Of a DNA stretch of 64,000 bases, positions 5,174-55,900 are shown piece by piece. Numbering within the stretch: position 1 is the first letter of the stretch; each line of letters starts with the position of its first letter. The notes under the pieces are model-generated. The model was given only the letters and a program-made list of their open reading frames with translations. It was not told the DNA's origin and made no database searches. Source of the stretch: Patescibacteria group bacterium (GTDB lineage Bacteria > Patescibacteriota > Minisyncoccia > Minisyncoccales > Staskawiczbacteraceae); the NCBI GenBank assembly GCA_038065715.1, contig JBBTQL010000007.1, forward strand, positions 49,643 to 113,642, written 5' to 3'. The position numbers were made by a program, and so were the translations under genes.

Positions 5174-5707
5174 TTACCCCGCTATACTAGTTTGGTCTAT
5201 TGGCTGATCATTATTTTCTTCAGTGCAGAGTTGAGGCGGTTTATACCTGTATCGCATTAAATAAGCGTCTTCTGGCGTATCATTAAAATGACCGTGAAGA
5301 ATCTTGACAGCCTTAAATTCGTTTTTGCGAAAAAACAGCTGGGCTGGAAGATTGGTTTCGCGAACTTCCAGTGTTACGTAGGTGCGGCGCTGAAAAGACA
5401 GCTTACTGCAAAGTTTTGCAACCATTTGGCTACCAACTCCTTGCCTCCGCCATTCAGGATGCACAGCAAAATTCAAAACATGTATTTTGGTTTTATGTAA
5501 TTCATAAACCATAAACCCGACTACGCGGTCTTCGTGTTCGGCCGCCATGCCAATGCAATTTCTTTGCCGCAGACATCTTACAAAATCATCTTCTCGCCAA
5601 GGAAATTCAAAACTTGAACTTTCAATGGCAAGAACCTCTGGCATATCCTGCCGAATCATCCACCTAATGTGAACACGAATGTCTTGTTTTACATTAGCTG
5701 TAGACAT
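5174..5707 (-). CDS. GNAT-family N-acetyltransferase (RimI-like)
   Basis: Acetyl-CoA motif HPEWRRQGVGSQMV. Start chosen at MSTANV because AAAGGAG lies 7 nt upstream. Minus strand and visibly G+C-richer than its neighbours. Confidence 0.8.
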   Translation of the reverse strand: MSTANVKQDIRVHIRWMIRQDMPEVLAIESSSFEFPWREDDFVRCLRQRNCIGMAAEHEDRVVGFMVYELHKTKIHVLNFAVHPEWRRQGVGSQMVAKLCSKLSFQRRTYVTLEVRETNLPAQLFFRKNEFKAVKILHGHFNDTPEDAYLMRYRYKPPQLCTEENNDQPIDQTSIAG

Positions 5708-5859
5708 GGCATTCTCCTTTATGCCGAGCATCCGTGGAAAGAACAACAATTAAATAATTGTATTCCCATAAAAAAGTTAGTCAAGAGTTAGTAGGTAGTT
5801 AGTTAATATTGATTTTGGTATTTTTTTGTGATTTAATTAACATGTAAAACATAACACAC

Positions 5860-6246
5860 ATGAAAACTATAAATAAAAATTTAATATTAATTATAGTAGC
5901 CTTTGTGCTTGTTATAGGCGGCGGCTTGCTTTTAAACCAGAAGCTTGGTTTTGCAAAGTTTTTATTTTCAGCATCTCCTGAAGGCATAATTTTGTTTTAC
6001 GGAGAGGGTTGCCCTCATTGTAAAATAGTAGACGATTATATTAAGGCAAACAATATTAAAGACAAAGTTAAGTTTATAGAATTAGAAGTTTTTAACAATA
6101 AAAACAACGCTAATATATTATTAGCAAAAGCTAAAACTTGTAACATAGACCAAAGTCAAATTGGAGTTCCTTTTTTATGGGATGGAAGTAAATGTCTGTT
6201 GGGCGACCAGGATGTTATAAATTTCTTTAAGGAAAAAACAAAATAA
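5860..6246 (+). CDS. Membrane-anchored thioredoxin/glutaredoxin-fold protein
   Basis: N-terminal TM helix followed by the redox motif GCPHCK. Confidence 0.6.
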   Translation: MKTINKNLILIIVAFVLVIGGGLLLNQKLGFAKFLFSASPEGIILFYGEGCPHCKIVDDYIKANNIKDKVKFIELEVFNNKNNANILLAKAKTCNIDQSQIGVPFLWDGSKCLLGDQDVINFFKEKTK

Positions 6247-6265
6247 ATAAAATAATAATTTAAAA

Positions 6266-6790
6266 ATGAAAATAAAAAATTATTCGTTAGCCAGTTTAAT
6301 TTTAGCTTTAATTTTATTTTTCGCAAAATCTGCCAAAGCTGTTTGTCCTGTCTGCATTGCGGCTGTGGGAACCGGACTTGGCTTCTCAAGGTGGTTGGGC
6401 GTAGATGACACAATTACAAGTTTATGGATTGGAGCATTACTTGCTTCTTCAAGCATTTGGACAATAATTTGGTTGAATAAAAAGAACTGGAGTTTTAAGT
6501 TCCAAAAAATTATTATTCCGGCTGCTTATTATTTGCTTACGTTGGTTCCGCTTTATTATTACGATATAATAGGGCATCCTTTTAATGTAATTTTTGGCGT
6601 TGATAAAATAATTTTTGGCGTAATTACCGGAACAATAATTTTTATGGCAAGTATATGGCTGCATAATTATTTAAAAAGAAAAAATGGTTTAAAATCATTT
6701 TTTCCTTATCAGAAAGTAGTTTTGCCAATTACGGTTTTATTAATTGCAAGTTTTATAATTTACTTTTTGCTTAAATGGATGATAATATAG
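6266..6790 (+). CDS. Polytopic membrane protein with N-terminal CxxC
   Basis: Signal-like N-terminus. AVCPVCIAAVG, then about 4 hydrophobic helices. Follows the thioredoxin-fold gene. Confidence 0.45.
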   Translation: MKIKNYSLASLILALILFFAKSAKAVCPVCIAAVGTGLGFSRWLGVDDTITSLWIGALLASSSIWTIIWLNKKNWSFKFQKIIIPAAYYLLTLVPLYYYDIIGHPFNVIFGVDKIIFGVITGTIIFMASIWLHNYLKRKNGLKSFFPYQKVVLPITVLLIASFIIYFLLKWMII

Positions 6791-40500: not shown

Positions 40501-40530
40501 AAAAACTACTCCGCTCGGAGTAGTTTTATT
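40501..40530 (+). terminator. Rho-independent terminator closing the ribosomal super-operon
   Basis: AAAAACTACTCC-GCTC-GGAGTAGTTTTATTTT. Confidence 0.6.
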
Positions 40531-40567
40531 TTGACTTAGATGTGGTAAAATTATATGATAAATCAAT

Positions 40568-41428
40568 ATGTTGGACGCAACAATAATAAAACAAAATAAA
40601 AAAGTTGATGATGCTGTATCTCGCGAGCTGTATTACGATAAGCCCGGATTTAAATTATACAATGCGAATTGTTTAGATGTTCTTGCAGAACTTCCGGAAA
40701 ACTCCGTTGATATGATTTTTGCGGATCCTCCTTATTTTTTATCAAATGGGGGATTTAGTTTGCATGCTGGCAAGAGAGTAAGCGTAGATAAGGGTCAATG
40801 GGATGTAAGTAATGGACTAAAAAAAGATTTTGATTTTCATCTTGAATGGATAAAAGCTTGCCATAGAGTTTTAAAGCCCCACGGAACGATTTGGATTAGT
40901 GGAACCTATCATTCAATTTATCAATGTGGATTTGCTTTGCTGGTCAATAAGTTCCACATATTAAACGATATTACGTGGTTCAAGCCCAATGCATCGCCAA
41001 ATTTAAGTTGTCGATTTTTTACGGCAAGTCATGAAACTTTGCTTTGGGCTAGGAAGGACAAAAATGCAAAACACATTTTTAATTACGATTTGATGAAAAA
41101 TGGAAGTTGGCCGGAAGACCAACTGAAAAAACCAAACCTTCAAATGCGTTCAGTTTGGGCTATTGGCACTCCAAAAACTGTTGAAAAAAAGTTTGGCAAA
41201 CATCCGACACAAAAGCCGGAAGATTTATTAAAAAGGATTGTACTTGCAAGCACAAATAAAGGAGATTTAGTTCTAGATCCTTTTACCGGAAGCTCAACCA
41301 CTGGGGTTGCCTCTTATCTTTTTGGCAGACATTTTATTGGGATTGATACGGAACCAAAATTTCTAGACTTATCAATAAAAAGGTTTGAGGAGTTAGATCG
41401 TAATTTAAAGAGTAAATTTACTTTTTAA
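40568..41428 (+). CDS. Beta-class N6-adenine/N4-cytosine DNA methyltransferase
   Basis: Motif IV IFADPPYF precedes motif I LDPFTGSSTTG. HPTQKPEDLL. Confidence 0.9.
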   Translation: MLDATIIKQNKKVDDAVSRELYYDKPGFKLYNANCLDVLAELPENSVDMIFADPPYFLSNGGFSLHAGKRVSVDKGQWDVSNGLKKDFDFHLEWIKACHRVLKPHGTIWISGTYHSIYQCGFALLVNKFHILNDITWFKPNASPNLSCRFFTASHETLLWARKDKNAKHIFNYDLMKNGSWPEDQLKKPNLQMRSVWAIGTPKTVEKKFGKHPTQKPEDLLKRIVLASTNKGDLVLDPFTGSSTTGVASYLFGRHFIGIDTEPKFLDLSIKRFEELDRNLKSKFTF

Positions 41429-41432
41429 AACC

Positions 41433-41993
41433 ATGGATGAACAACAGCTAAAAACATACATGACATTTCAGAGAGATGGCCAATCAAAGATGCCTCTCGC
41501 CGTTTTTGAAGTAAATGGAAGCTATGTTGTCGGCGTTTATCAAGGTACTTTGAGTGATTTTGATATTCTGATAAAATATAGACAAAAAATAGATGGAACA
41601 TGGTCAAGAATTCGGACTCCAAAACATATTCACTGGGCTGCTGACATTTTAATTAAATTACACGAGGATAAAATTAAAACACAACAGTTCCTCGATTTTT
41701 TATTAGGTATATGGGCCACGACTGTGCCAGTTAGAAATCCGAAACAACAAAGTGATATTTTAAATATAAAATCATTGCTAAAAGATAGCCAAAATATGAT
41801 TTTAGAGTATGAGAGCTTGAGCAATAAAGGAGAATATAGTATTAAATTTTTAATATTACTTGCTAAATTATTAATGATTCAAGAAAAGACGAATATGGAA
41901 GCGGCCTTTATGTTTAAAAATTTATTGGATGCGCTCCGCAACAAAGGAGATATTTTTTCTGTTGTATCCATAGCGTCCCATACCGGACGATAA
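41433..41993 (+). CDS. Hypothetical protein embedded between the MTase and nuclease genes
   Basis: 186-aa ORF starting 4 nt after the MTase stop. No catalytic motif recognised. Confidence 0.5.
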   Translation: MDEQQLKTYMTFQRDGQSKMPLAVFEVNGSYVVGVYQGTLSDFDILIKYRQKIDGTWSRIRTPKHIHWAADILIKLHEDKIKTQQFLDFLLGIWATTVPVRNPKQQSDILNIKSLLKDSQNMILEYESLSNKGEYSIKFLILLAKLLMIQEKTNMEAAFMFKNLLDALRNKGDIFSVVSIASHTGR

Positions 41994-42003
41994 TCAAAAA
42001 TTT

Positions 42004-42624
42004 ATGAAAATTATAACTCGCGCGGTTGCCATAAGAAATTTAAGAAAATATGTGGGCCAGGATTTAAGAAAGTTGGCTTTAGAGCATGGAATTACAACTT
42101 ATGAAACCGGAAAGCAAAACAAGGGCTGGAAAGGGCTTGTTTTAGAAAGGCTGGCAGGATTAGAAACAAATATTTCAAAGGCTCCAAACGGGCTAACTTA
42201 TGAATTAAAATCGGTTGCTTTTCACCATGTTAAAAATAATCTTGTGCCGAAAGAAACCATGGCGATAACAATGATAAATCCAGAAGAATTAAAAGCCCAT
42301 TCTTTTTTTGAAAGTCATTGCTGGGCAAAACTTAAAACCATTGTGTTTTGTGCGGTTGGATGGAATGGCATAAATTCTACAGAAGCAAAATTACTTAAAG
42401 TTGCGAGCTTAGATTTTGCCGAAGACGACGAATTAATAAAAGAAATAAAAGCAGATTATGATTTTATCCGCGAAAAACTAATTACAAAAGGTTTTAAATC
42501 CTTAACTGGTGCAGACGGAAAATGGATACAAGCGAGAACAAAAGGTGCCGGACACGGATCGACAAGCCGGGCTTTTTATGCTAGAACAGGTTTAGTGAAA
42601 AAAATTTTTGAGATAGCATCATAA
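42004..42624 (+). CDS. MutH/Sau3AI-family endonuclease-like protein
   Basis: ...NKGWKGLVLERLAG......YELKSV... resembles MutH KGWIG.LLE..LG......D....ELK (from memory). The Asp position appears to be Asn (APNGLTYELK). Confidence 0.65.
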   Translation: MKIITRAVAIRNLRKYVGQDLRKLALEHGITTYETGKQNKGWKGLVLERLAGLETNISKAPNGLTYELKSVAFHHVKNNLVPKETMAITMINPEELKAHSFFESHCWAKLKTIVFCAVGWNGINSTEAKLLKVASLDFAEDDELIKEIKADYDFIREKLITKGFKSLTGADGKWIQARTKGAGHGSTSRAFYARTGLVKKIFEIAS

Positions 42625-42642
42625 AAATTAATCGAAACCATT

Positions 42643-43356
42643 ATGGAAATTAATCAAAAAGAAACCGTTGCACAATCTACAAAATTAACGGCGGCAGATG
42701 TTCTAGAAAATTCCGTAAGAACGGTTGGGACGTTTAAGCCAAAATTTAACCCTAGTGCAGGAAAAATGTTTTCAGATGAATTAAATGTATTAGGAACAGC
42801 ATTTTGGCTGAAGGAATATGGAGTGTTGATTACTTGCGCTCATGTAGTTGCGGAAATGATTAAATTGCCTTTGGAATCCGCTGGTTTGTTAGTCGTCGGT
42901 AATCACGGTAAATATCAAAGAGCTATTGTGGGTATGGTTGACTATTTACACGATTTGGCTGTTCTTAATTTGGTTGACTCTAACACTGGTATTCTTATAC
43001 CAGATTTTATTACTTCTATTGATTCTGAAAAGGGCTTACTTCTTTCAAATGATTATCCAAAAACTGGTACGAGAGTTGCCTGGGCAGGATACCCGCTGGG
43101 GAATCAATTGCTAAATCAAATTCATAATCCAACCTATTCAGAGGGAGTTGTTGGGATATCTAAAAGAGATAGTTCCCTGCGAAAAGATATACAAATATCG
43201 GGCGTTGTCGTTGGAGGATATAGTGGTTCACCAGTAATCAATATAGAAAACAATAAACTGATCGGTGTGGTCTCTAATGGTCCGCAAAATTCAGGTATAT
43301 TTATGGCTGTTTCTTGGGAGCATGTTAAGGCCTTAGCAGTGTCAGCTAAATCATAG
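42643..43356 (+). CDS. Cytoplasmic trypsin-like (S1/S1C) serine protease
   Basis: Catalytic triad contexts TCAHVV (His), LHDLAVL (Asp), GGYSGSPV (Ser). No signal peptide. Confidence 0.8.
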   Translation: MEINQKETVAQSTKLTAADVLENSVRTVGTFKPKFNPSAGKMFSDELNVLGTAFWLKEYGVLITCAHVVAEMIKLPLESAGLLVVGNHGKYQRAIVGMVDYLHDLAVLNLVDSNTGILIPDFITSIDSEKGLLLSNDYPKTGTRVAWAGYPLGNQLLNQIHNPTYSEGVVGISKRDSSLRKDIQISGVVVGGYSGSPVINIENNKLIGVVSNGPQNSGIFMAVSWEHVKALAVSAKS

Positions 43357-43378
43357 AAAAATAAAATTATTTACAAAT

Positions 43379-43639
43379 ATGGAAGATACAAAAAATTGTC
43401 AAAAAATATTCGATGAATATATTAGTTTAAATAATCAGATTGTAGCAAGAGATGTTGGGCCTAAGGGGGAAATTGTCGCAACGCCGATTAACGACATTGA
43501 AAAACTATTCGGTCTAAGAAAAAAGGTTTATAGTTGTTTACATGAATTATCTGATGAGCAACTAATAGAACTATACGGTCATAAAGACCTGGAGGAAGCA
43601 CAGAAAATTTTATTAGAACGAAAATTAAAAATTAATTGA
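43379..43639 (+). CDS. Small acidic helical hypothetical protein
   Basis: 86-aa ORF, 22 nt after the protease gene. Confidence 0.45.
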   Translation: MEDTKNCQKIFDEYISLNNQIVARDVGPKGEIVATPINDIEKLFGLRKKVYSCLHELSDEQLIELYGHKDLEEAQKILLERKLKIN

Positions 43640-43670
43640 GAAATGAATTTTGTAGGTTTTAAATGTTGTT

Positions 43671-44063
43671 GTGGGACATATTATTATGAAATTTCCATTT
43701 GAAGGAACATCGGTTAATTCTTTAGCTAAACAGGTAAGCAGCAAAAGTGCTGTAAATCCTTCTCTTTGGGCGTGCCTTGTAGTTTCCCTGCCCCTCTTTT
43801 TGCTTGCAAGCAAAACCGCCGGGATTTTATCATTCTGTTTTTTCGGGATTGCAATTTTGCCAGTTGTTGCATTTCTAATAAGTTATATATATCTTATCTT
43901 CAAGAATCCAAAATATCTTAGATCGGAAGAATACCAACTTAGAGCCGAAGCGATGAATTTAATTGGTGATAAAGATAATCCGCTTCATGCCGATGCAGAC
44001 GATATTGTTTCTGTAATAAATAATCCAATGCTTCCATCGCCTAACAAGGAAAAAAATGAGTAA
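43671..44063 (+). CDS. Small two-TM membrane protein (ATG alternative at 43686)
   Basis: Two hydrophobic helices (LWACLVVSLPLFLLA; ILSFCFFGIAILPVVAFLISYIYLI), then a charged tail. Confidence 0.5.
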   Translation: MGHIIMKFPFEGTSVNSLAKQVSSKSAVNPSLWACLVVSLPLFLLASKTAGILSFCFFGIAILPVVAFLISYIYLIFKNPKYLRSEEYQLRAEAMNLIGDKDNPLHADADDIVSVINNPMLPSPNKEKNE

Positions 44064-44343
44064 ACTATATTTTATTACCTTCAAAGCTGGTTTAAACTAT
44101 AATGCTATTAATTTTCATAGCTACATTACTGCTTTGTATGAAAAAAAATGGATTACTGATTGGTGGCATTATACTGATAATACCTACATCGTTGCTTCAT
44201 CTTACGACGTTAATCAGTTGTATAGTGCTGCTGTTCCCGGTATGTCGAATATGGTCTACGTTCTCTTTATTGAAGTAAATCCAAATAATTCACAGGGATG
44301 GTTGCCTCCGGACGCATGGACATGGCTACAGAAGTATAAGTAA
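44056..44343 (+). CDS. Small Trp-rich hypothetical protein
   Basis: 95-aa ORF overlapping the previous gene by 8 nt. ...WITDWWHYTDNTYIVAS...GWLPPDAWTWLQKY. Confidence 0.45.
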   Translation: MSKLYFITFKAGLNYNAINFHSYITALYEKKWITDWWHYTDNTYIVASSYDVNQLYSAAVPGMSNMVYVLFIEVNPNNSQGWLPPDAWTWLQKYK

Positions 44344-44348
44344 TGGGC

Positions 44349-44376
44349 TTGACTCGTTAAACTATCGCGGTATAAT
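44349..44376 (+). promoter_or_regulatory. Sigma70-like promoter for the orphan sRNA
   Basis: TTGACT(44349-54)-16 nt-TATAAT(44371-76). Confidence 0.5.
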
Positions 44377-44382
44377 AGGTAA

Positions 44383-44500
44383 TGTAGTGACTGTTGGTTT
44401 CGAAGAATAGAAATTCCTGGTCTCAACTGCGGTGAGAAACATTCTCGCTTAAGTGGGCAAAACGTTAATTACAAAAAAAATCCCCTCCCGGGGATTTTTT
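44383..44500 (+). ncRNA. Candidate ~118-nt structured sRNA in the accessory island
   Basis: No ORF. Hairpins GGTGAGAA-ACA-TTCTCGCT and GTTGG...CTCAAC. 5' GTAAT / 3' ATTAC. Terminator ATCCCC-TCCC-GGGGATTTTTT (44480-44500). Confidence 0.45.
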
Positions 44501-44575: not shown

Positions 44576-44794
44576 ATGGGATACTGGGATGCAACAGATC
44601 AAATTATAAATGCAAACGGGGGACAAAACCCAATTTGCCCAGCTTGTCATCAGGAAATGATTCCAATTGATGACCATGGAAGATTTTCCTGTGCCTGCAA
44701 GCCGTTGTTTGACCGCGATATCGGATATAGATTACCAACACCAATTCCTATGGTAATTGATAGAATTTTAGACATTGAAAGGCATCGGCCATAA
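44576..44794 (+). CDS. Small zinc-ribbon-like protein (SD-led)
   Basis: CPACHQEM...FSCAC. GGGAG 7 nt upstream of ATG. Confidence 0.5.
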   Translation: MGYWDATDQIINANGGQNPICPACHQEMIPIDDHGRFSCACKPLFDRDIGYRLPTPIPMVIDRILDIERHRP

Positions 44795-44873: not shown

Positions 44874-45569
44874 ATGTTAAAAGAACTTATTGACGAGTTT
44901 TACGAGGAACAGCAAAAAAATAAAGAGCAGACCAAGTTTTATATTACAGACGCCGGCAAATGCCCGCGCGCTGTTTTTTTTAAATTTAAAAATGCGCCAA
45001 GAGAGCCAATGGATGCGCGTATTTTAAGAATTTTTGAGCACGGCGAACACATACACAGAAATATTTTTAATGTTTTGTATCGCCTTAGAATTGGGGTAAC
45101 AACAGAAATTTCAATTCCATCGCAAGAAATAATTTCTGGCAGAGCCGACGCAATTTTATGCATTAACAACGAAAATTATGTGTTAGACATTAAAAGTATG
45201 AACAGCATGATTTTCAGAAATTTAAATCAGCCAAAAGAAGAAAATATTTACCAGATTCAGCTTTACTTGCATTATTTTAACATTAAAAAAGGCATTCTGC
45301 TTTACATAGACAAAGACCAGCAAAACATTAAAGAGTTTGTTGTGGACTATGATGCAGAGCTTGTAAAAAGTTTGCTTGATAAATTTTACAGCTTAAAAAC
45401 CAAAGTAGAAGAAAATATTGTTCCAGAAAGAATGCAAGATTATCCAAAAAACTGGCAATGTCAGTATTGCCAATTTAAAGACATTTGCAAAACGGCAAAC
45501 GGCCAGGAAATGAAGTGGCAGGAGTTTAAAGATAAAATTGAGTCGCAAAACACCAATCAATCATCATAA
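44874..45569 (+). CDS. Stand-alone Cas4/RecB-like PD-(D/E)XK nuclease with 4-Cys cluster
   Basis: N-terminal Cys (DAGKCPRAVFF). Motif II GRADAIL. Motif III LDIKS. QxxxY (YQIQLYLHY). C-terminal CQYCQFKDIC. Confidence 0.7.
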   Translation: MLKELIDEFYEEQQKNKEQTKFYITDAGKCPRAVFFKFKNAPREPMDARILRIFEHGEHIHRNIFNVLYRLRIGVTTEISIPSQEIISGRADAILCINNENYVLDIKSMNSMIFRNLNQPKEENIYQIQLYLHYFNIKKGILLYIDKDQQNIKEFVVDYDAELVKSLLDKFYSLKTKVEENIVPERMQDYPKNWQCQYCQFKDICKTANGQEMKWQEFKDKIESQNTNQSS

Positions 45570-49910: not shown

Positions 49911-52900
49911 ATGAAAAATAAAAAAAATCAATTTTTCAAGGCTAAACTTTTTAGCCGATTCCTAACAAAATCAGCGAATAATTTTTTATTTAAGCCAACT
50001 ATAATAATGTTGGTTTTTTTGTTTGTTTTTCAGCCAATGGCGTCCGTGTTTGCGCAGGAAGCGCAGGAGGTAAACGTTATTGTTCCTGAAAGCCCTGTAA
50101 TAGGCGAGATAGGACAAATTCCCGCAATAAGCAATGTTGAGCCAACCCAGACTATTAGCCCTATAACAGAATTAAGTCCTAGTGAAATTCCTCTTGTTCT
50201 ATCGCCAGAGCCTCAAGCCCCAACTATAGAGAGCGTTCCTATCGATTCGCCATTAGAGCAAAATACAGAACAAAATGTTGCAGAAAAAGAGCCTGTAGCT
50301 GCTCAAGCATTAAATCAGAACGAAGAAAACAAACAGCCAAGTTCCAGTTTGCAATTAACTCAAAAATTGCCTGAAATAGATAAAAACACAGGCGCTTTAA
50401 CATATAATTATTCTATTGCTGTTCCGCCCGGCAGAAACGGTTTTCAGCCAGAAATTGGGTTGTCATATAACAGCAATTCAAATGAACAAAACAGCATTGC
50501 AGGATATGGCTGGACTATAAATATTCCATATATCAAGCGGTTAAATAAAGCGGGTTCTGACAAACTTTATACTTCAGGAGCCGCCAGTTATTTTTATTCT
50601 TCGCTTGACGGCGAGCTGACATCAGCTGGCGGAGTTTTATATGTTCCCAAAATAGAAAACGGCAATTTTAATAAATACACTTTTGAAAATAATCAATGGA
50701 TTGTTGTTTTTAAAAACGGCACACAATATAAATTTGGGTATAATGATAATTCAAAGCAAAACGACCCAGCCAATCCAGACAACGTTTATAAATGGATGCT
50801 GCAAGAAATAAGGGACACAAACGATAATTTTATTTCTTATGAGTATTTTAAAGACAGGGGGCAGATTTATCCTTTGTCAATAAAATATACTGGCAACGGC
50901 TCAACAGACGGCATTTTTGAGGCTGATTTTCAGAGAATTGACAGGACAGACAATTTTGCCAATTATTCAACTGGTTTTAGCGTAAAGTCTAATTATTTAA
51001 TAGGTGAAATTACAGCAAACATAAATAATGACTGGACAAATAAATATGTTTTGAATTACGAAAAAAGCCAAGACGCAAACAAATCTTTATTAAAATCAAT
51101 AACAACATCAGGCAAAAATAGTAGCGGAAATATTGTTTCTTTAGCGCCATCAAACTTTAGTTATCAAAATTCAACTGCTGGTTTCACGCCCTCAAACACT
51201 TCGTGGAATATTCCATCGCCCCCAGAAGGCGATTGGAATTTACTCACAAGATCTCCTCAATTTGCCGACCTTAACGGAGACGGTCTGCAAGACTTAGTAA
51301 TAGTTGCCCATATTCCAATTGTAATAGGAACTTATCACGGCTCTCGCCTACAAGATTATCAATATTTAAATACAGGCTCAGGCTGGCTGCAAACAACAGC
51401 ATGGAACTTTCCAGGTGTGCCAGACGGCGAATCTTTATGGCAATGGCCAACTATTCCGCCGATGTTCACCGACCTTAACGGAGATGGCTTAACAGACCTT
51501 GTTTTGGTTGCCAGCCACTATAATTATGGAAATATTTATAAAGACTATCAATATCTCAACACCGGAAACGGCTGGGCGCCAAATTTCACATGGCAGCTTC
51601 CAACTCTGCCAGAAGGAGAATGGAATTTTATTTCAATGCCTCCGCAATTTGTGGATCTCAACGGAGATGGCCTGCCAGACATTTCAGCTTTAACAAGAGT
51701 TACTTTTTATGAGGATAACCGTTCTTGGAGGGAAGACAGAAATTATCAATACCTCAACACCGGAAGCGGCTGGGCGCTGGTCTCCGCCTGGAAACTTCCA
51801 ACCCTGCCAGATGGCGAATCTATGTGGCAGTGGCCTACCATACCTCCGCAGTTTACAGACCTCAACGGAGACGGTTTAACAGACCTTGTTTTAGTTGCCA
51901 GCCACTATAATTACGGACATATTTATAAAGACTATGAATATCTCAACACAGGCTCTGGTTGGACGCCAAACTCCACATGGCAACTGCCAGAGGTGGGCTG
52001 GGATTTTATTTTAATGCCCCCGCGGTTTGTGGATCTTAATTCTGACAACCTGCCAGACATTGCAATAATAGTTCGCAGGTGTGTGGAAATTGATAACAGA
52101 ACTTCTTGCGAGTATAAAGACTATCAATATCTTAATAATGGTTCTGGCTGGACACAGATTCAAACGTGGAAATTTCCAGATGTGCCAGTCGGCGAAGATA
52201 CATGGCAATATCCAGGCAGGCCACCGATATTTACAGACCTTAATGGAGACGGTTTACCCGACCTTGTTTTAATTGCCAGGCACTATAATTATGGAAATTA
52301 CCCAAAAGACTATGAATATCTTAACGGCGGGTTAAAACAGGATTTGTTAAGCCAGATAAATTATCCGCAGGGCGGCAATACAAAAGTTGATTATAAGCCC
52401 TCAACTCAATATATAGACGACTCTGGGGTTTTGTTAAATAAATCACCATATCCTATATTTACTGTTTTACAAATTATAAACAGCGATGGCCAAGGCAGTG
52501 AAATAAAATTATCATATAGGTACGCGGGCTCGCATTATTACTACAACAACCCTTTTGACAGGGAATTTGCAGGATACGATTTGGTTGAGCAAACAGATTC
52601 TATGGGAAACACAGCCAAAACTTATTTTCATACAGCTAACGACAGCAATTCATCTGCCGGAGAATTTGAAGACAATTATTTTAAAATTGGCAAGCCGTAT
52701 AGAATAGAGCAGTATGACAACAATAATAAACTTTATCAAACAACAATAAATAAATGGGGAAGCGCTAATTTAGGAAGCAATGCCGGTTTTGTAAAACTGC
52801 TTCAAACAATAGAACAAAATTTTGACCCTGACTTAACTCATAAAGACAAGGCAGAAAGCTATGAATATGACAACAATAATGGGAATCAAACTCAAAAAAT

Positions 52901-55900
52901 AGAATGGGGCGAAGTTTTGGCAAATGATGACGGTAGTTTTTTAGATATTGGAAATGACAAGCGTATTGCTAATATTAGTTATGCTGTTGGCGGAATTTCC
53001 AATTTCCAATTTTCAATTTCCAATCAATTTATCAATGACCAAAACGGAACTAAAATTAAAGAAGCCAAATATTACTACGACGGCCTGCCGCTTGGCCAGT
53101 TAACCTTGGGAAATCAAACTAAACAGGAAAATTGGATAAAAAACACAGATTACGCCAGCTCTGAAAATTCATATAATAATTTTGGCCTGCTCACACAAAC
53201 AAAAGATGCAAATAACAATGCCACAAATTTTTCATACGAAGCAAATAATATTTATCCAGCCTCTGTTATAAATGCCAAAAATCAAACAACGCAATATGTT
53301 TATAATTACGCTATTGGTAAACCAGCTCAAATAACCAATGCCAACGGAAATATATTTAAAAACACTTATGACGGTTTTGGCAGAATTTTAAAAACAGAAC
53401 AGCCAGACCAAAATAACCCTTCAACATTAGTTGTAAAAACATCTTATGTTTACAACGACAGTCCCTTGGCTGTGAGCGTTCAGCAAACAGATTATTTAGA
53501 CGGCTCAAACTCTGTAAACAACTATAATTATTATGACGGTCTTTCAAGAACTATACAGACAAAAAAATCTGCTGAAAATAGCAACTTTGAAACAAAAGAT
53601 TATATTTATGATAATAGGGGAAATTTACAAAAAGAATCTTTGCCTTATTTCTCTCAAGGTTCGGCAAAAACAAGCTCAACTTCAGAAGCTAATCTTTTTG
53701 CAAACTATGTTTATGACGCTTTAAATAGAAAAACAAGTGTTATAAATGTAGTTGGAGCAACAAGCTATAACTATAAAAATTGGCAGGCAATAATTACAGA
53801 TGTTAATGGAAACAAAAAAGACTATATTTATGACGCTTACGGCAATTTAACGCAGGTTTTAGAGCATAATGGGCAAGACACTTATATAACTGCTTATACT
53901 TATGACGGAGCAGGGAATTTAATTTTAATTACAGATGCTTTGGGAAATGTCCGCAATTTTGTTTATGACGGTTTAGGCAGAAGATTATCTGCCCAAGATT
54001 TGCATAATCCTGCAGATTCGGTTTTTGGAACTTTTACTTATTCTTATGATAATGCAGGAAATCTAATTAGTTTAACCGACCCTAAAAACCAGACAATAAA
54101 TTATGCTTACGACGCTTTAAACAGAAAAATAACTGAAAATTATACAGGAAAAACTGGCATAGAAGTTATATTAAACTATGATTATTGTTTAAACGGCAAA
54201 GGTTTATTGTGCGACAGCGTTTCAACAAGTCAAACAGAGCAATATGAATATTCAGCCTTGGGAAATGTAATAAAGCAAACAAAAATTATTGGAGATAATA
54301 TTTTAACAACCCAATTTAATTATGACAGGCAAGGAAGTCAAATTTTTATTGCAAACCCAGACAGCTCGCAAGTTAAATATGATTTTAATTCAGCCGGCTT
54401 AATTGAAAAAGTGTGGCGAAAAGAATCTGGCGACGCAGCATTTACTGTTGTAGCCAGCAACCTTGATTATTCGCCAACAGAACAAATTGCCAGTATTTCT
54501 TTAGCAAACGGAGCTCAAACAACAAACACTTATGACGCAAACCAGCTTTACCGCTTAACCCGTAAATTATCTTATGCAAACAACGTTAATTTGCAGGATA
54601 TTTTTTACCAGTATGACAGCGTGGGCAATATAAAACAAACAACTGACAATTCAAATACAGCCGCCAAAAAAATAGTTTATTATAATTATGATAATTTATA
54701 CAGATTAATTTCGGCTGTGGCCAGCAATACGTCAGACAATCAAGATTATACTCAAAATTTTACTTATGACGCTTTAGGCAATATATTATCTCAAAAATTA
54801 AACGAAAAAACTCTTTCTTATAACTACGAAGGCAATTTAGATTTATCTTACGCAAACCCAGATGCGGCAACAAAAATTGTTGAAAGCGGAATTAAGCCAG
54901 TATTAATTATTTCAAATTTTGTTTCTTCGCCAGCAACAATTAAACCGGGGGAGCAAGCAGTTTTGTCGTGGGCTGTTTCAAACGGAACTCCAACAAGTTT
55001 AACCATAGATAACGGAATCGGCTCGGTTTTGGGCTTGAATTTTAAAATAGTAAATCCAACCGCAACAACAACTTACACAATAACAGCTGAAAACAGCAAC
55101 GGAACAACCACAAAATCAATTACTATAACAGTTGCCCAACAACAGGCCGCAATTTTCACAAAAACTTTGGGCAATATAATTGACTCAGCAATTCCTGCTG
55201 CCCCAGTTATTTCAACCTTTAAAGCCTCGCTAACCACTATAACTCAGGGAGGCTCAAGCTCTTTATCATGGACTTTGTCTGGCGGAGCTCCAGCAAGTTT
55301 AATAATAGATAACGGAGTAGGCAATGTTTTAGGAAAAACAAAAATTACTGTAAAGCCATTATTCACCACAACATACACAATAACCGCAACAAACAGCGCA
55401 GGCGAGGCAACTAAATCTGTAACAATAACTGTGAAGCCTCATTCTTTGGCTCCGGTAATTTCAAGTTTTACCGCAAACCCGACCTCTATTGAAAAAGGAA
55501 AATATGCAACCTTGTCGTGGAAGATTACAGGCTCAATTAAACCCACAAGTTTAACCATAAACAATGGCGTGGGTTCGGTTTTAAATACCACTTCAAAAAG
55601 AATTACACCTAATGCAACAGCCAGCTATACGCTTACCGCAACAAACAGATATGGCGCGGCGTTTAAAACCGTAAAAATAACTGTAAATGATGTACCGCCG
55701 CCTCCGCCTCCTCCTCCTCCGCCTCCACCGCCAGCAGAAGAAGCCCCAGTTATTAATTCTTTCACAGCTGACAATACAACAATTATTCAAGGACAATCTG
55801 CAATATTATCATGGACTTTGTCTGGCGGAACTGCTACAACCCTAAGTATAAACAACGGAGTTGGCAGTGTTTTAGGAAAAACAAGCGTTATTGTAAATCC

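Follow-up and report, generated by a model that had tools for sequence, protein, structure and literature searches.

A restriction-associated trypsin-like protease gene and a TM protein/Cas2-like gene pair in a probable composite defence island of a Patescibacteria bacterium

We analysed a 64,000-nucleotide (nt) stretch of contig JBBTQL010000007.1 (assembly GCA_038065715.1), called the window below, which comes from a Patescibacteria metagenome-assembled genome. Our subject is a run of four genes in it, encoding a cytoplasmic trypsin-like serine protease, an 86-amino-acid (aa) protein, a small protein with two transmembrane (TM) segments and a 95-aa protein (p95); three restriction-modification (R-M) genes precede them (Table 1). 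The gene products of the locus are recorded at NCBI as MEK7658739-43. An original prediction, made from the sequence of the window without database searches, had read the four genes as one protease-triggered membrane effector system. Our best explanation, to which we give a probability of about 0.6, is not a four-gene system but a composite defence island made of three units: a type II R-M system to which a restriction-associated protease is attached, a single orphan gene, and the TM and Cas2-like p95 genes as a cassette derived from phage.

Table 1. Features of the locus and of its downstream flank (coordinates in the window)
Feature	Coordinates	Strand	Basis or remark
Type II DNA methyltransferase, N6_N4 class	40568-41428	+	Pfam PF01555 E=2e-57; PADLOC MTase_II E=2e-96
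186-aa protein between methylase and nuclease	41433-41993	+	No family match
MutH/Sau3AI-like type II restriction endonuclease	42004-42624	+	Pfam MutH E=9e-10; NCBIfam Sau3AI E=1e-13, MutH E=8e-13; PADLOC REase_II
Cytoplasmic HtrA-like (S1C) serine protease without PDZ, restriction-associated family, 237 aa	42643-43356	+	Trypsin_2, triad, AlphaFold2 model, neighbourhood statistics
Mildly acidic orphan protein, 86 aa	43379-43639	+	Coding by codon usage
Two-TM small membrane protein, first gene of conserved pair	43671-44063 (GTG, 130 aa) or 43686-44063 (ATG, 125 aa)	+	phrog_27377 E=1e-14
p95, divergent Cas2-like (ferredoxin-fold) 95-aa protein, second gene of pair	44056-44343	+	phrog_1090 E=3e-4
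Promoter-like site (11/12, TTGACT-16-TATAAT), then ~100-125 nt non-coding and strong terminator	44349-44500	+	Promoter-like 44349-44376, terminator-like 44475-44500
72-aa zinc-ribbon open reading frame, phage-like	44576-44794	+	
Cas4-like PD-(D/E)XK nuclease, C-terminal Cys cluster	44874-45569	+	530 nt downstream of p95

The seven genes between 40568 and 44343 are all co-directional. The protease gene starts 18 nt after the end of the nuclease gene and is followed after 22 nt by the 86-aa gene; the next gap measures 31 nt if the TM gene starts at its GTG codon or 46 nt if it starts at ATG, and the TM and p95 genes overlap by 8 nt. The NCBI record has the ATG start, with which the N-termini of the homologues agree. 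Every open reading frame (ORF), the 86-aa one included, scored positive for codon usage in its own frame and negative in both other frames. Just past rpsI, the 5′ border of the run carries a terminator-like site (40502-40527) and a promoter-like site (40531-40559). The strong terminator-like site of Table 1 marks its 3′ border, and no terminator separates the protease gene from the small genes. ORF calling reproduced the four co-directional frames, coordinates, gaps and motifs originally reported, and the borders of the run agree with the earlier view that all seven genes look like a single transcription unit. The proposed defence-island setting is likewise supported, the region resembling an insertion behind the rpsI (ribosomal-protein) operon. 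There is no tRNA gene in the region, and an Rfam search of it returned sub-threshold matches only. Four further assemblies carry the locus in identical form. L055 and L056, two independent Logan contigs whose sequence equals that of the window, both stop at window position 44396, past the p95 gene and the promoter-like site behind it; this shared end may be a strain-variable junction.

The protease carries the motifs TCAHVV, HDLAVL and GYSGSPV, and the intact triad noticed in the original prediction (H67, D104 and S194) is unchanged in 39 family members. It matches Pfam Trypsin_2 (E=2e-14). The absence of a signal peptide was confirmed by hydropathy because the N-terminus is not hydrophobic: over 19-residue windows that begin within the first 30 residues, the Kyte-Doolittle mean peaks at 0.19. 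No PDZ domain was matched, and the protease fold occupies all 237 aa. In the AlphaFold2 model (predicted local distance difference test score, pLDDT, 89.6), the nearest PDB folds found by Foldseek are the protease domains of HtrA1, DegP and DegQ (TM-score 0.6-0.75, ~20% identity); in sequence, the family is only remotely related to solved proteases (E about 3e-4, to HtrA). A database search returned 186 relatives. The 120 listed share 47-84% identity and are nearly all single-domain proteins of 208-250 aa, with one of 293 aa. Mean column identity in the family is 49%. Besides the triad, its members share a family-specific N-terminal hairpin (VRAVGTFKPKF..G..FSDELNV.GTAFWL) and a conserved C-terminal Ser.

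A pattern-based scan of 185,579 species-representative genomes, which can miss members, located the family at 37 loci, in Patescibacteria, Omnitrophota, Verrucomicrobiota, Planctomycetota, Acidobacteriota and other phyla. Phage genomes and PLSDB plasmids yielded no match and IMG/VR a single weak partial one, so that the protease gene belongs to cells and does not serve counter-defence. Together with its variable, R-M-rich contexts, this rarity does not bear out the alternative of a conserved housekeeping HtrA, which had been named as a possible refutation of the module. The window protease and the S1C enzymes HtrA, DegP and DegQ have in common the His-Asp-Ser chymotrypsin fold, which is the best fold match; they differ in that the window family lacks PDZ domain and signal peptide, is sparse and patchy in distribution and has an N-terminal hairpin of its own. 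The family is thus a sparse cellular gene that moves horizontally, and not a housekeeping HtrA.

Matches to known defence proteins were confined to their protease parts: PADLOC RT-Protease_XI (E=2e-16, over positions 339-507 of the 510 in the profile, which are its protease part), PDC-M35A (6e-10) and LmuA (2e-5). With the DRT/UG class 11 reverse transcriptase-protease the window protein shares a trypsin-like domain, but no reverse transcriptase lies in or beside it. The resemblance to PDC-M35A, a candidate defence protease, is limited to the trypsin-like domain. To LmuA of Lamassu the match is weak, and no SMC/LmuB protein is present among nine neighbouring proteins.

To characterize the neighbourhoods of the protease, genes were called in 37 GTDB and 80 metagenome loci, counted as 99 distinct loci. 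Neighbours were annotated with precomputed Pfam assignments, with iterated profiles seeded from Pfam-annotated neighbours, and by direct Pfam scans of those left unassigned. An R-M gene was found within three genes of the protease in 38 of the 99 loci, 29 of these being of type I, and was its immediate neighbour in 34. In 19 loci, from several phyla, the protease gene is inserted behind hsdM/hsdS and ahead of hsdR, the gaps measuring 1-10 nt. The enrichment depends on distance: R-M genes made up 75/423 of the genes within three positions of the protease versus 8/355 at six or more positions. An all-against-all comparison of the neighbours retrieved HsdM, HsdS and HsdR as the only recurrent families. 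The earlier suggestion that the protease may be coupled to the R-M genes upstream of it fits this enrichment.

The arrangements are varied. In three loci (L005-7) the order is hsdM-hsdS-protease-hsdR and the gaps are 5 and 3 nt; another (L008) has HsdM-protease-276aa-HsdR-YgjP. In L013, the protease gene follows genes for a PLD-helicase, an MmeI/Eco57I methylase and an 89-aa protein. The closest relative of the window protease (84% identity) lies beside DndB (L001). Direct Pfam scans added further partners: an EcoRI-type methylase with a GmrSD-HNH protein, Mrr, an SLFN-type helicase with RadC, and an AAA_15 ATPase. Two loci (L002 and L010) are non-defence contexts.

Other genes at these loci deserve mention. 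A KwaB (Kiwa) homologue is encoded a few genes downstream of the protease-bearing type I operon of L005 (11012-11872) and confirms a defence-island setting at that locus. Genes for YgjP-like (DUF45) metallopeptidases often follow hsdR in protease-carrying type I operons (L008, L029, L031, L044), so that two different putative peptidases are encoded at some R-M loci; such genes were also noted in L002 and L042. L033 has a serpin gene (5352-6566, Pfam E=1e-121) as the second gene downstream of a protease family member, and the two may be a protease/inhibitor pairing. The idea of a conserved inhibitor downstream of the protease was unsupported, as the small downstream ORFs of the other loci have no common family or charge pattern.

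The concept of R-M guardians is established for PrrC in EcoprrI and for PARIS (PMC12707154). Like those genes, the protease gene is an accessory gene co-oriented within a restriction operon, mostly of type I, and its place between hsdS and hsdR is that of PrrC. The proteins are different: PrrC combines an ABC-ATPase with an anticodon nuclease, whereas the window protein is a trypsin-like domain only. Members of the protease family also occur with type II, IIG, IV and Dnd-type systems, and some stand alone. A functional analogue is Lit, which is likewise a cytoplasmic protease in phage defence and differs in being a metalloprotease. Lit provides a precedent for a protease acting as an abortive-infection effector.

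In the window, the predicted methyltransferase and endonuclease have separate genes, as in type II R-M systems. From gene content, family memberships and co-occurrence patterns, we infer that the first unit of the island joins this system (methylase, 186-aa protein and MutH/Sau3AI-like nuclease) to a PDZ-less HtrA-like protease at its 3′ end. The protease is probably a PrrC-like second line of defence, expressed together with the restriction genes but latent. Infections in which restriction is evaded or inhibited would activate it, and it would then act by cleavage, as PrrC and Lit do, here of host or phage proteins. Judged by these analogies, a latent, infection-triggered protease alongside restriction is the most likely mechanism. 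Because the gene is tightly inserted in R-M operons, is conserved across unrelated nucleases and is absent from phages and plasmids, it is best taken as a host defence accessory that does not recognise a single nuclease, and it would not be the partner of any one of them in particular.

Among the alternatives, the one that survives best is tentative at most: the protease gene could act on its own in defence or stress, as a mere hitch-hiker in R-M operons and islands that is functionally independent of restriction. In its favour are solitary copies among housekeeping genes (L010, L021, L036-L038) and copies with other defence neighbours (the SLFN-type helicase with RadC, the AAA_15 ATPase, and the serpin of L033). 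Against it stand the insertion between hsdS and hsdR at 1-10 nt in 19 loci of several phyla, which points to co-transcription or translational coupling, and a position bias far above general co-location in islands. A second alternative, which we consider unlikely, makes the protease a regulator of restriction, that is an alleviation or establishment factor that would degrade the nuclease subunit while the host DNA is unmodified. Proteolytic control of this kind is established for ClpXP and HsdR, the EcoKI subunit (PMC12707154, PMC4231737), and the location of the protease gene inside R-M operons, usually right before hsdR, would suit it. However, proteases 84% identical to each other accompany a MutH-like nuclease in the window and DndB in L001, and their relatives accompany HsdR, MmeI-like, Mrr and GmrSD proteins of unrelated folds; one protease recognising all of these is unparsimonious. 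Many protease copies, moreover, have no R-M neighbour.

The second unit of the island would be the orphan 86-aa gene. Its product is acidic, as originally described (pI 5.4), and forms a singleton cluster at 90% identity. It matched no family in Pfam, PADLOC, PHROGs or NCBIfam and had no relative in ~110 fetched loci or in L198, a small element described below; tblastn against phage genomes and a close-relative scan of IMG/VR were both empty. The original prediction had recognised none of the three small proteins. This stands for the 86-aa protein, which has no detectable relatives, but not for the TM protein and p95, which belong to sizeable families (426 cluster representatives and 663 relatives).

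The TM protein has the two hydrophobic segments expected from the earlier description. An exhaustive HMMER search yielded 426 cluster representatives of its family at E<=1e-3, with two TM segments, a P[DE]xLRSEEYQ helix after the second one and an NPxxP tail as common features. Scans of IMG/VR for close relatives of each small protein singly, and a tblastn search of phage genomes with the TM protein, gave no match. Loci of the family were gathered with hand-made degenerate DNA patterns, the second of which returned one locus, cut at the gene end. Wherever a TM-family gene with downstream DNA occurred in the fetched loci, local profile searches found an overlapping or abutting p95-like gene behind it. 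Outside the window the pair was found in seven instances (L062, L065, L068, L111, L112, L197 and L198), on phage contigs, on an integrative element and on a short metagenome contig. In L111/L112, the p95-like partner has an extra coiled-coil tail. The closest relatives of the window pair are in L197 and L198 (54-59% and 55% identity); in both, a p95 orthologue with 55% identity lies directly behind the TM gene. The small element L198 encodes a large serine recombinase, a Rep protein and RelB; protease and R-M genes are absent from it. No protease was present in the available DNA of any of the seven other pairs, which for L197 extends only 85 nt upstream.

The partner gene belongs to a wider family. 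A profile search collected 663 p95 relatives of ~90 aa across Bacteria, with the canonical consensus YLISYDLNK..WWHYLDSTW..GWLPxDAWDWL. Among 40 sampled members, Pfam Cas2 matched 5/40 and PADLOC Cas2b 13/40 (best E=2e-8), and the family profile scored E=0.35 against Cas2 in the PDB; the window p95 itself matched no Cas2 profile. Its AlphaFold2 model (pLDDT 84.7) shows a beta-alpha-beta-beta-alpha-beta fold with an added C-terminal helix (E-H-E-E-H-E-H). Foldseek matches to this model were generic ferredoxin-like folds only, several Cas2 entries being among them (TM-score about 0.5). At the end of strand 1, where canonical members read YDL, the window protein reads F-K-A, with Lys in place of Asp. 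The family is like the ferredoxin-fold nucleases Cas2 and VapD in fold, and its canonical members keep the strand-1 Asp and in part match Cas2 profiles. The window locus differs from those of Cas2 in having no cas1 gene or CRISPR array; the window protein has in addition the Lys substitution, a family-specific GWLPxDAWxWL C-terminal helix and a membrane-protein partner. No short-spaced direct repeats that could form a CRISPR array were present in the 64-kb window, nor Cas1 among the neighbours. On profile and model evidence, the window p95 is taken to be a divergent member of a widespread Cas2-like family.

Carriers of the family are largely mobile. By tblastn, p95 relatives were found in two phages of Firmicutes, both temperate; the gene runs antisense to their early genes, on the integrase/repressor strand, a site that looks moron-like. 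Canonical p95 genes in viral contigs are mostly solitary antisense morons, and others reside on 80 plasmids; ColE1-type plasmids of 3-5 kb from Klebsiella, Citrobacter and Pantoea also carry them, without annotation. On a Cereibacter plasmid (L200, NZ_CP012967.1, 2995-6249), a canonical p95 gene heads a CBASS operon (CD-NTase and SAVED effector) beside ImmA/IrrE, and canonical members repeatedly adjoin pairs of ImmA/IrrE (M78) metallopeptidase and helix-turn-helix genes (L194, L200, L201). In another Patescibacteria genome (L057, GCA_049294415.1, 2603-4744), a tight operon encodes a ThsB-TIR protein, a caspase-like Peptidase_C14, a canonical p95 and a PycTM protein, with no cyclase visible. 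The TIR and caspase pair is a complete known system, type IV Thoeris (bioRxiv 10.1101/2024.10.24.620036). The published Liu-DS6 Pycsar/Thoeris operon has an unnamed fifth gene (PMC13069673), which might be a candidate member of the p95 family.

The best reading of the TM and p95 genes, given their distribution, is a separately mobile two-gene cassette that would be phage-derived. Moron-like positions, carriage on phages, plasmids and integrative elements, and known defence systems nearby make a small membrane effector under the control of soluble p95 the most likely role of the TM protein. As the third unit of the island, it would be a membrane-acting toxin or exclusion effector under p95 control, serving moron-type superinfection exclusion, abortive infection or addiction. 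PycTM and holin-like toxins are comparable small multi-TM proteins beside a soluble partner. The window TM protein differs from PycTM in having no match to PF18967 and no cyclase nearby, and belongs to a separate family with a post-TM helix. We think it improbable that the pair is instead a phage module for lysis timing or other development, outside defence and addiction. The TM protein does resemble a holin or antiholin in size and topology, and in L062 the pair lies directly after the holin-endolysin-Rz/Rz1 genes and before HNH and terminase genes. The site behind Rz is, however, a classical moron site, and the pair also occurs with no lysis genes nearby (L065, L112, L198) and in a chromosomal island that is not a prophage.

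These distributions speak against the single four-gene system of the original prediction, in which cleavage of an inhibitor or adaptor by the protease would free the TM effector. The proposed co-occurrence, whose absence had been named beforehand as a refutation, was not found: none of the 99 distinct protease loci (0/99) holds a relative of the 86-aa, TM or p95 gene. The TM and p95 genes, for their part, travel together in phages and in an integrative element with no protease visible at the seven other pairs, of which the closest one with flanks, L198, is a recombinase/Rep element. The roles assigned to the small proteins as sensor, effector and adaptor found no comparative support. The idea of a protease freeing a membrane effector recalls bacterial gasdermins and their proteases; the TM protein, a 125-aa helical two-TM protein, is not a gasdermin and does not co-occur with the protease family. 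What speaks for a single system is the tight packing of the genes in the same direction with no terminator between them, which makes co-transcription probable, together with two parallels: the other-clan caspase-like C14 protease directly before a p95-family gene and PycTM in L057, and the canonical p95 genes near ImmA/IrrE metallopeptidases. The first parallel is weakened by the TIR and caspase pair being already complete as type IV Thoeris (bioRxiv 10.1101/2024.10.24.620036), and the second by the frequency of ImmA/IrrE in the regulatory regions of mobile elements. We therefore hold the four-gene system to be very improbable. Least credible of all is a broader scheme in which p95 would be a general switch, gated by proteases, that acts on membrane or other effectors, failed restriction leading the protease to cleave p95 or the 86-aa protein and the TM protein to collapse the membrane; it is prompted by p95 members adjoining proteases of three unrelated clans, S1C (window), C14 (L057) and M78 (L194, L200, L201), and, if true, would unite restriction, a protease relay and a phage-derived toxin in one layered system.

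Several observations weigh against the composite island as we read it. About 60% of the protease loci have no R-M gene, many of them being short contigs and the local profiles covering only some R-M families, and the protease also lies beside housekeeping genes such as those for gyrA, GroEL, GH31 and an aldo-keto reductase. The protease can thus stand alone, and its restriction link may be co-location and not functional dependence. In the window it follows a type II nuclease, a minority context for the family. Given the look of a single transcription unit, a local functional coupling of the protease and the small genes downstream may exist. For distant relatives of the 86-aa protein, the sole large-database attempt, with the three small proteins concatenated, was empty at E<=10 and is unreliable; that query is not evidence of absence, as it missed sequences identical to each of its parts in the same collection. 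As for the pair, no evidence separates a toxin-antitoxin, exclusion, lysis-control or other role, and the window p95 also lacks other conserved acidic residues of the canonical family.

A literature search retrieved no description of a serine protease family within R-M operons, nor of a TM and Cas2-like pair. Both are uncharacterised variants of known themes, R-M accessory genes and toxin-like mobile cassettes, and are not categorically new. If the protease family is a functional restriction accessory, it would add to the R-M guardians or second-line effectors a new kind that uses proteolysis instead of tRNA cleavage. It is spread over candidate-phyla-radiation bacteria and other uncultured phyla, in which defence biology is almost unexplored. 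The p95 parent family of the TM and Cas2-like pair, likewise uncharacterised, borne by phages and plasmids and found beside CBASS and Thoeris, likely takes part in conflicts between mobile elements. Both leads come from comparative genomics.

Turning to the remaining genes, the 186-aa protein encoded between methylase and nuclease had no match in Pfam, PADLOC, PHROGs, NCBIfam or the PDB, and its 90%-identity cluster has three members. It may serve the R-M system as a specificity or control subunit. That it might be a second MutH-like domain or a paralogue of the nuclease was rejected, BLASTP giving no similarity and the PDB no relative.

Behind p95, the segment 44349-44500 has a predicted fold stabler than that of shuffled sequences (z = -3.0) and matched no Rfam family at or near the gathering score; we regard it as a candidate small RNA and the putative end of the gene cluster. 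For the Cas4-like nuclease further downstream, the PHROGs of phage Cas4-domain exonucleases (E=1e-32) scored better than CRISPR Cas4. Elsewhere in the window, a plus-strand ORF at 49911-58049 encodes a secreted protein of 2712 aa whose translation contains FG-GAP/VCBS-like, YD/RHS-type and Ig-like repeats and a distinct C-terminal domain, and which looks like a polymorphic toxin or adhesin.

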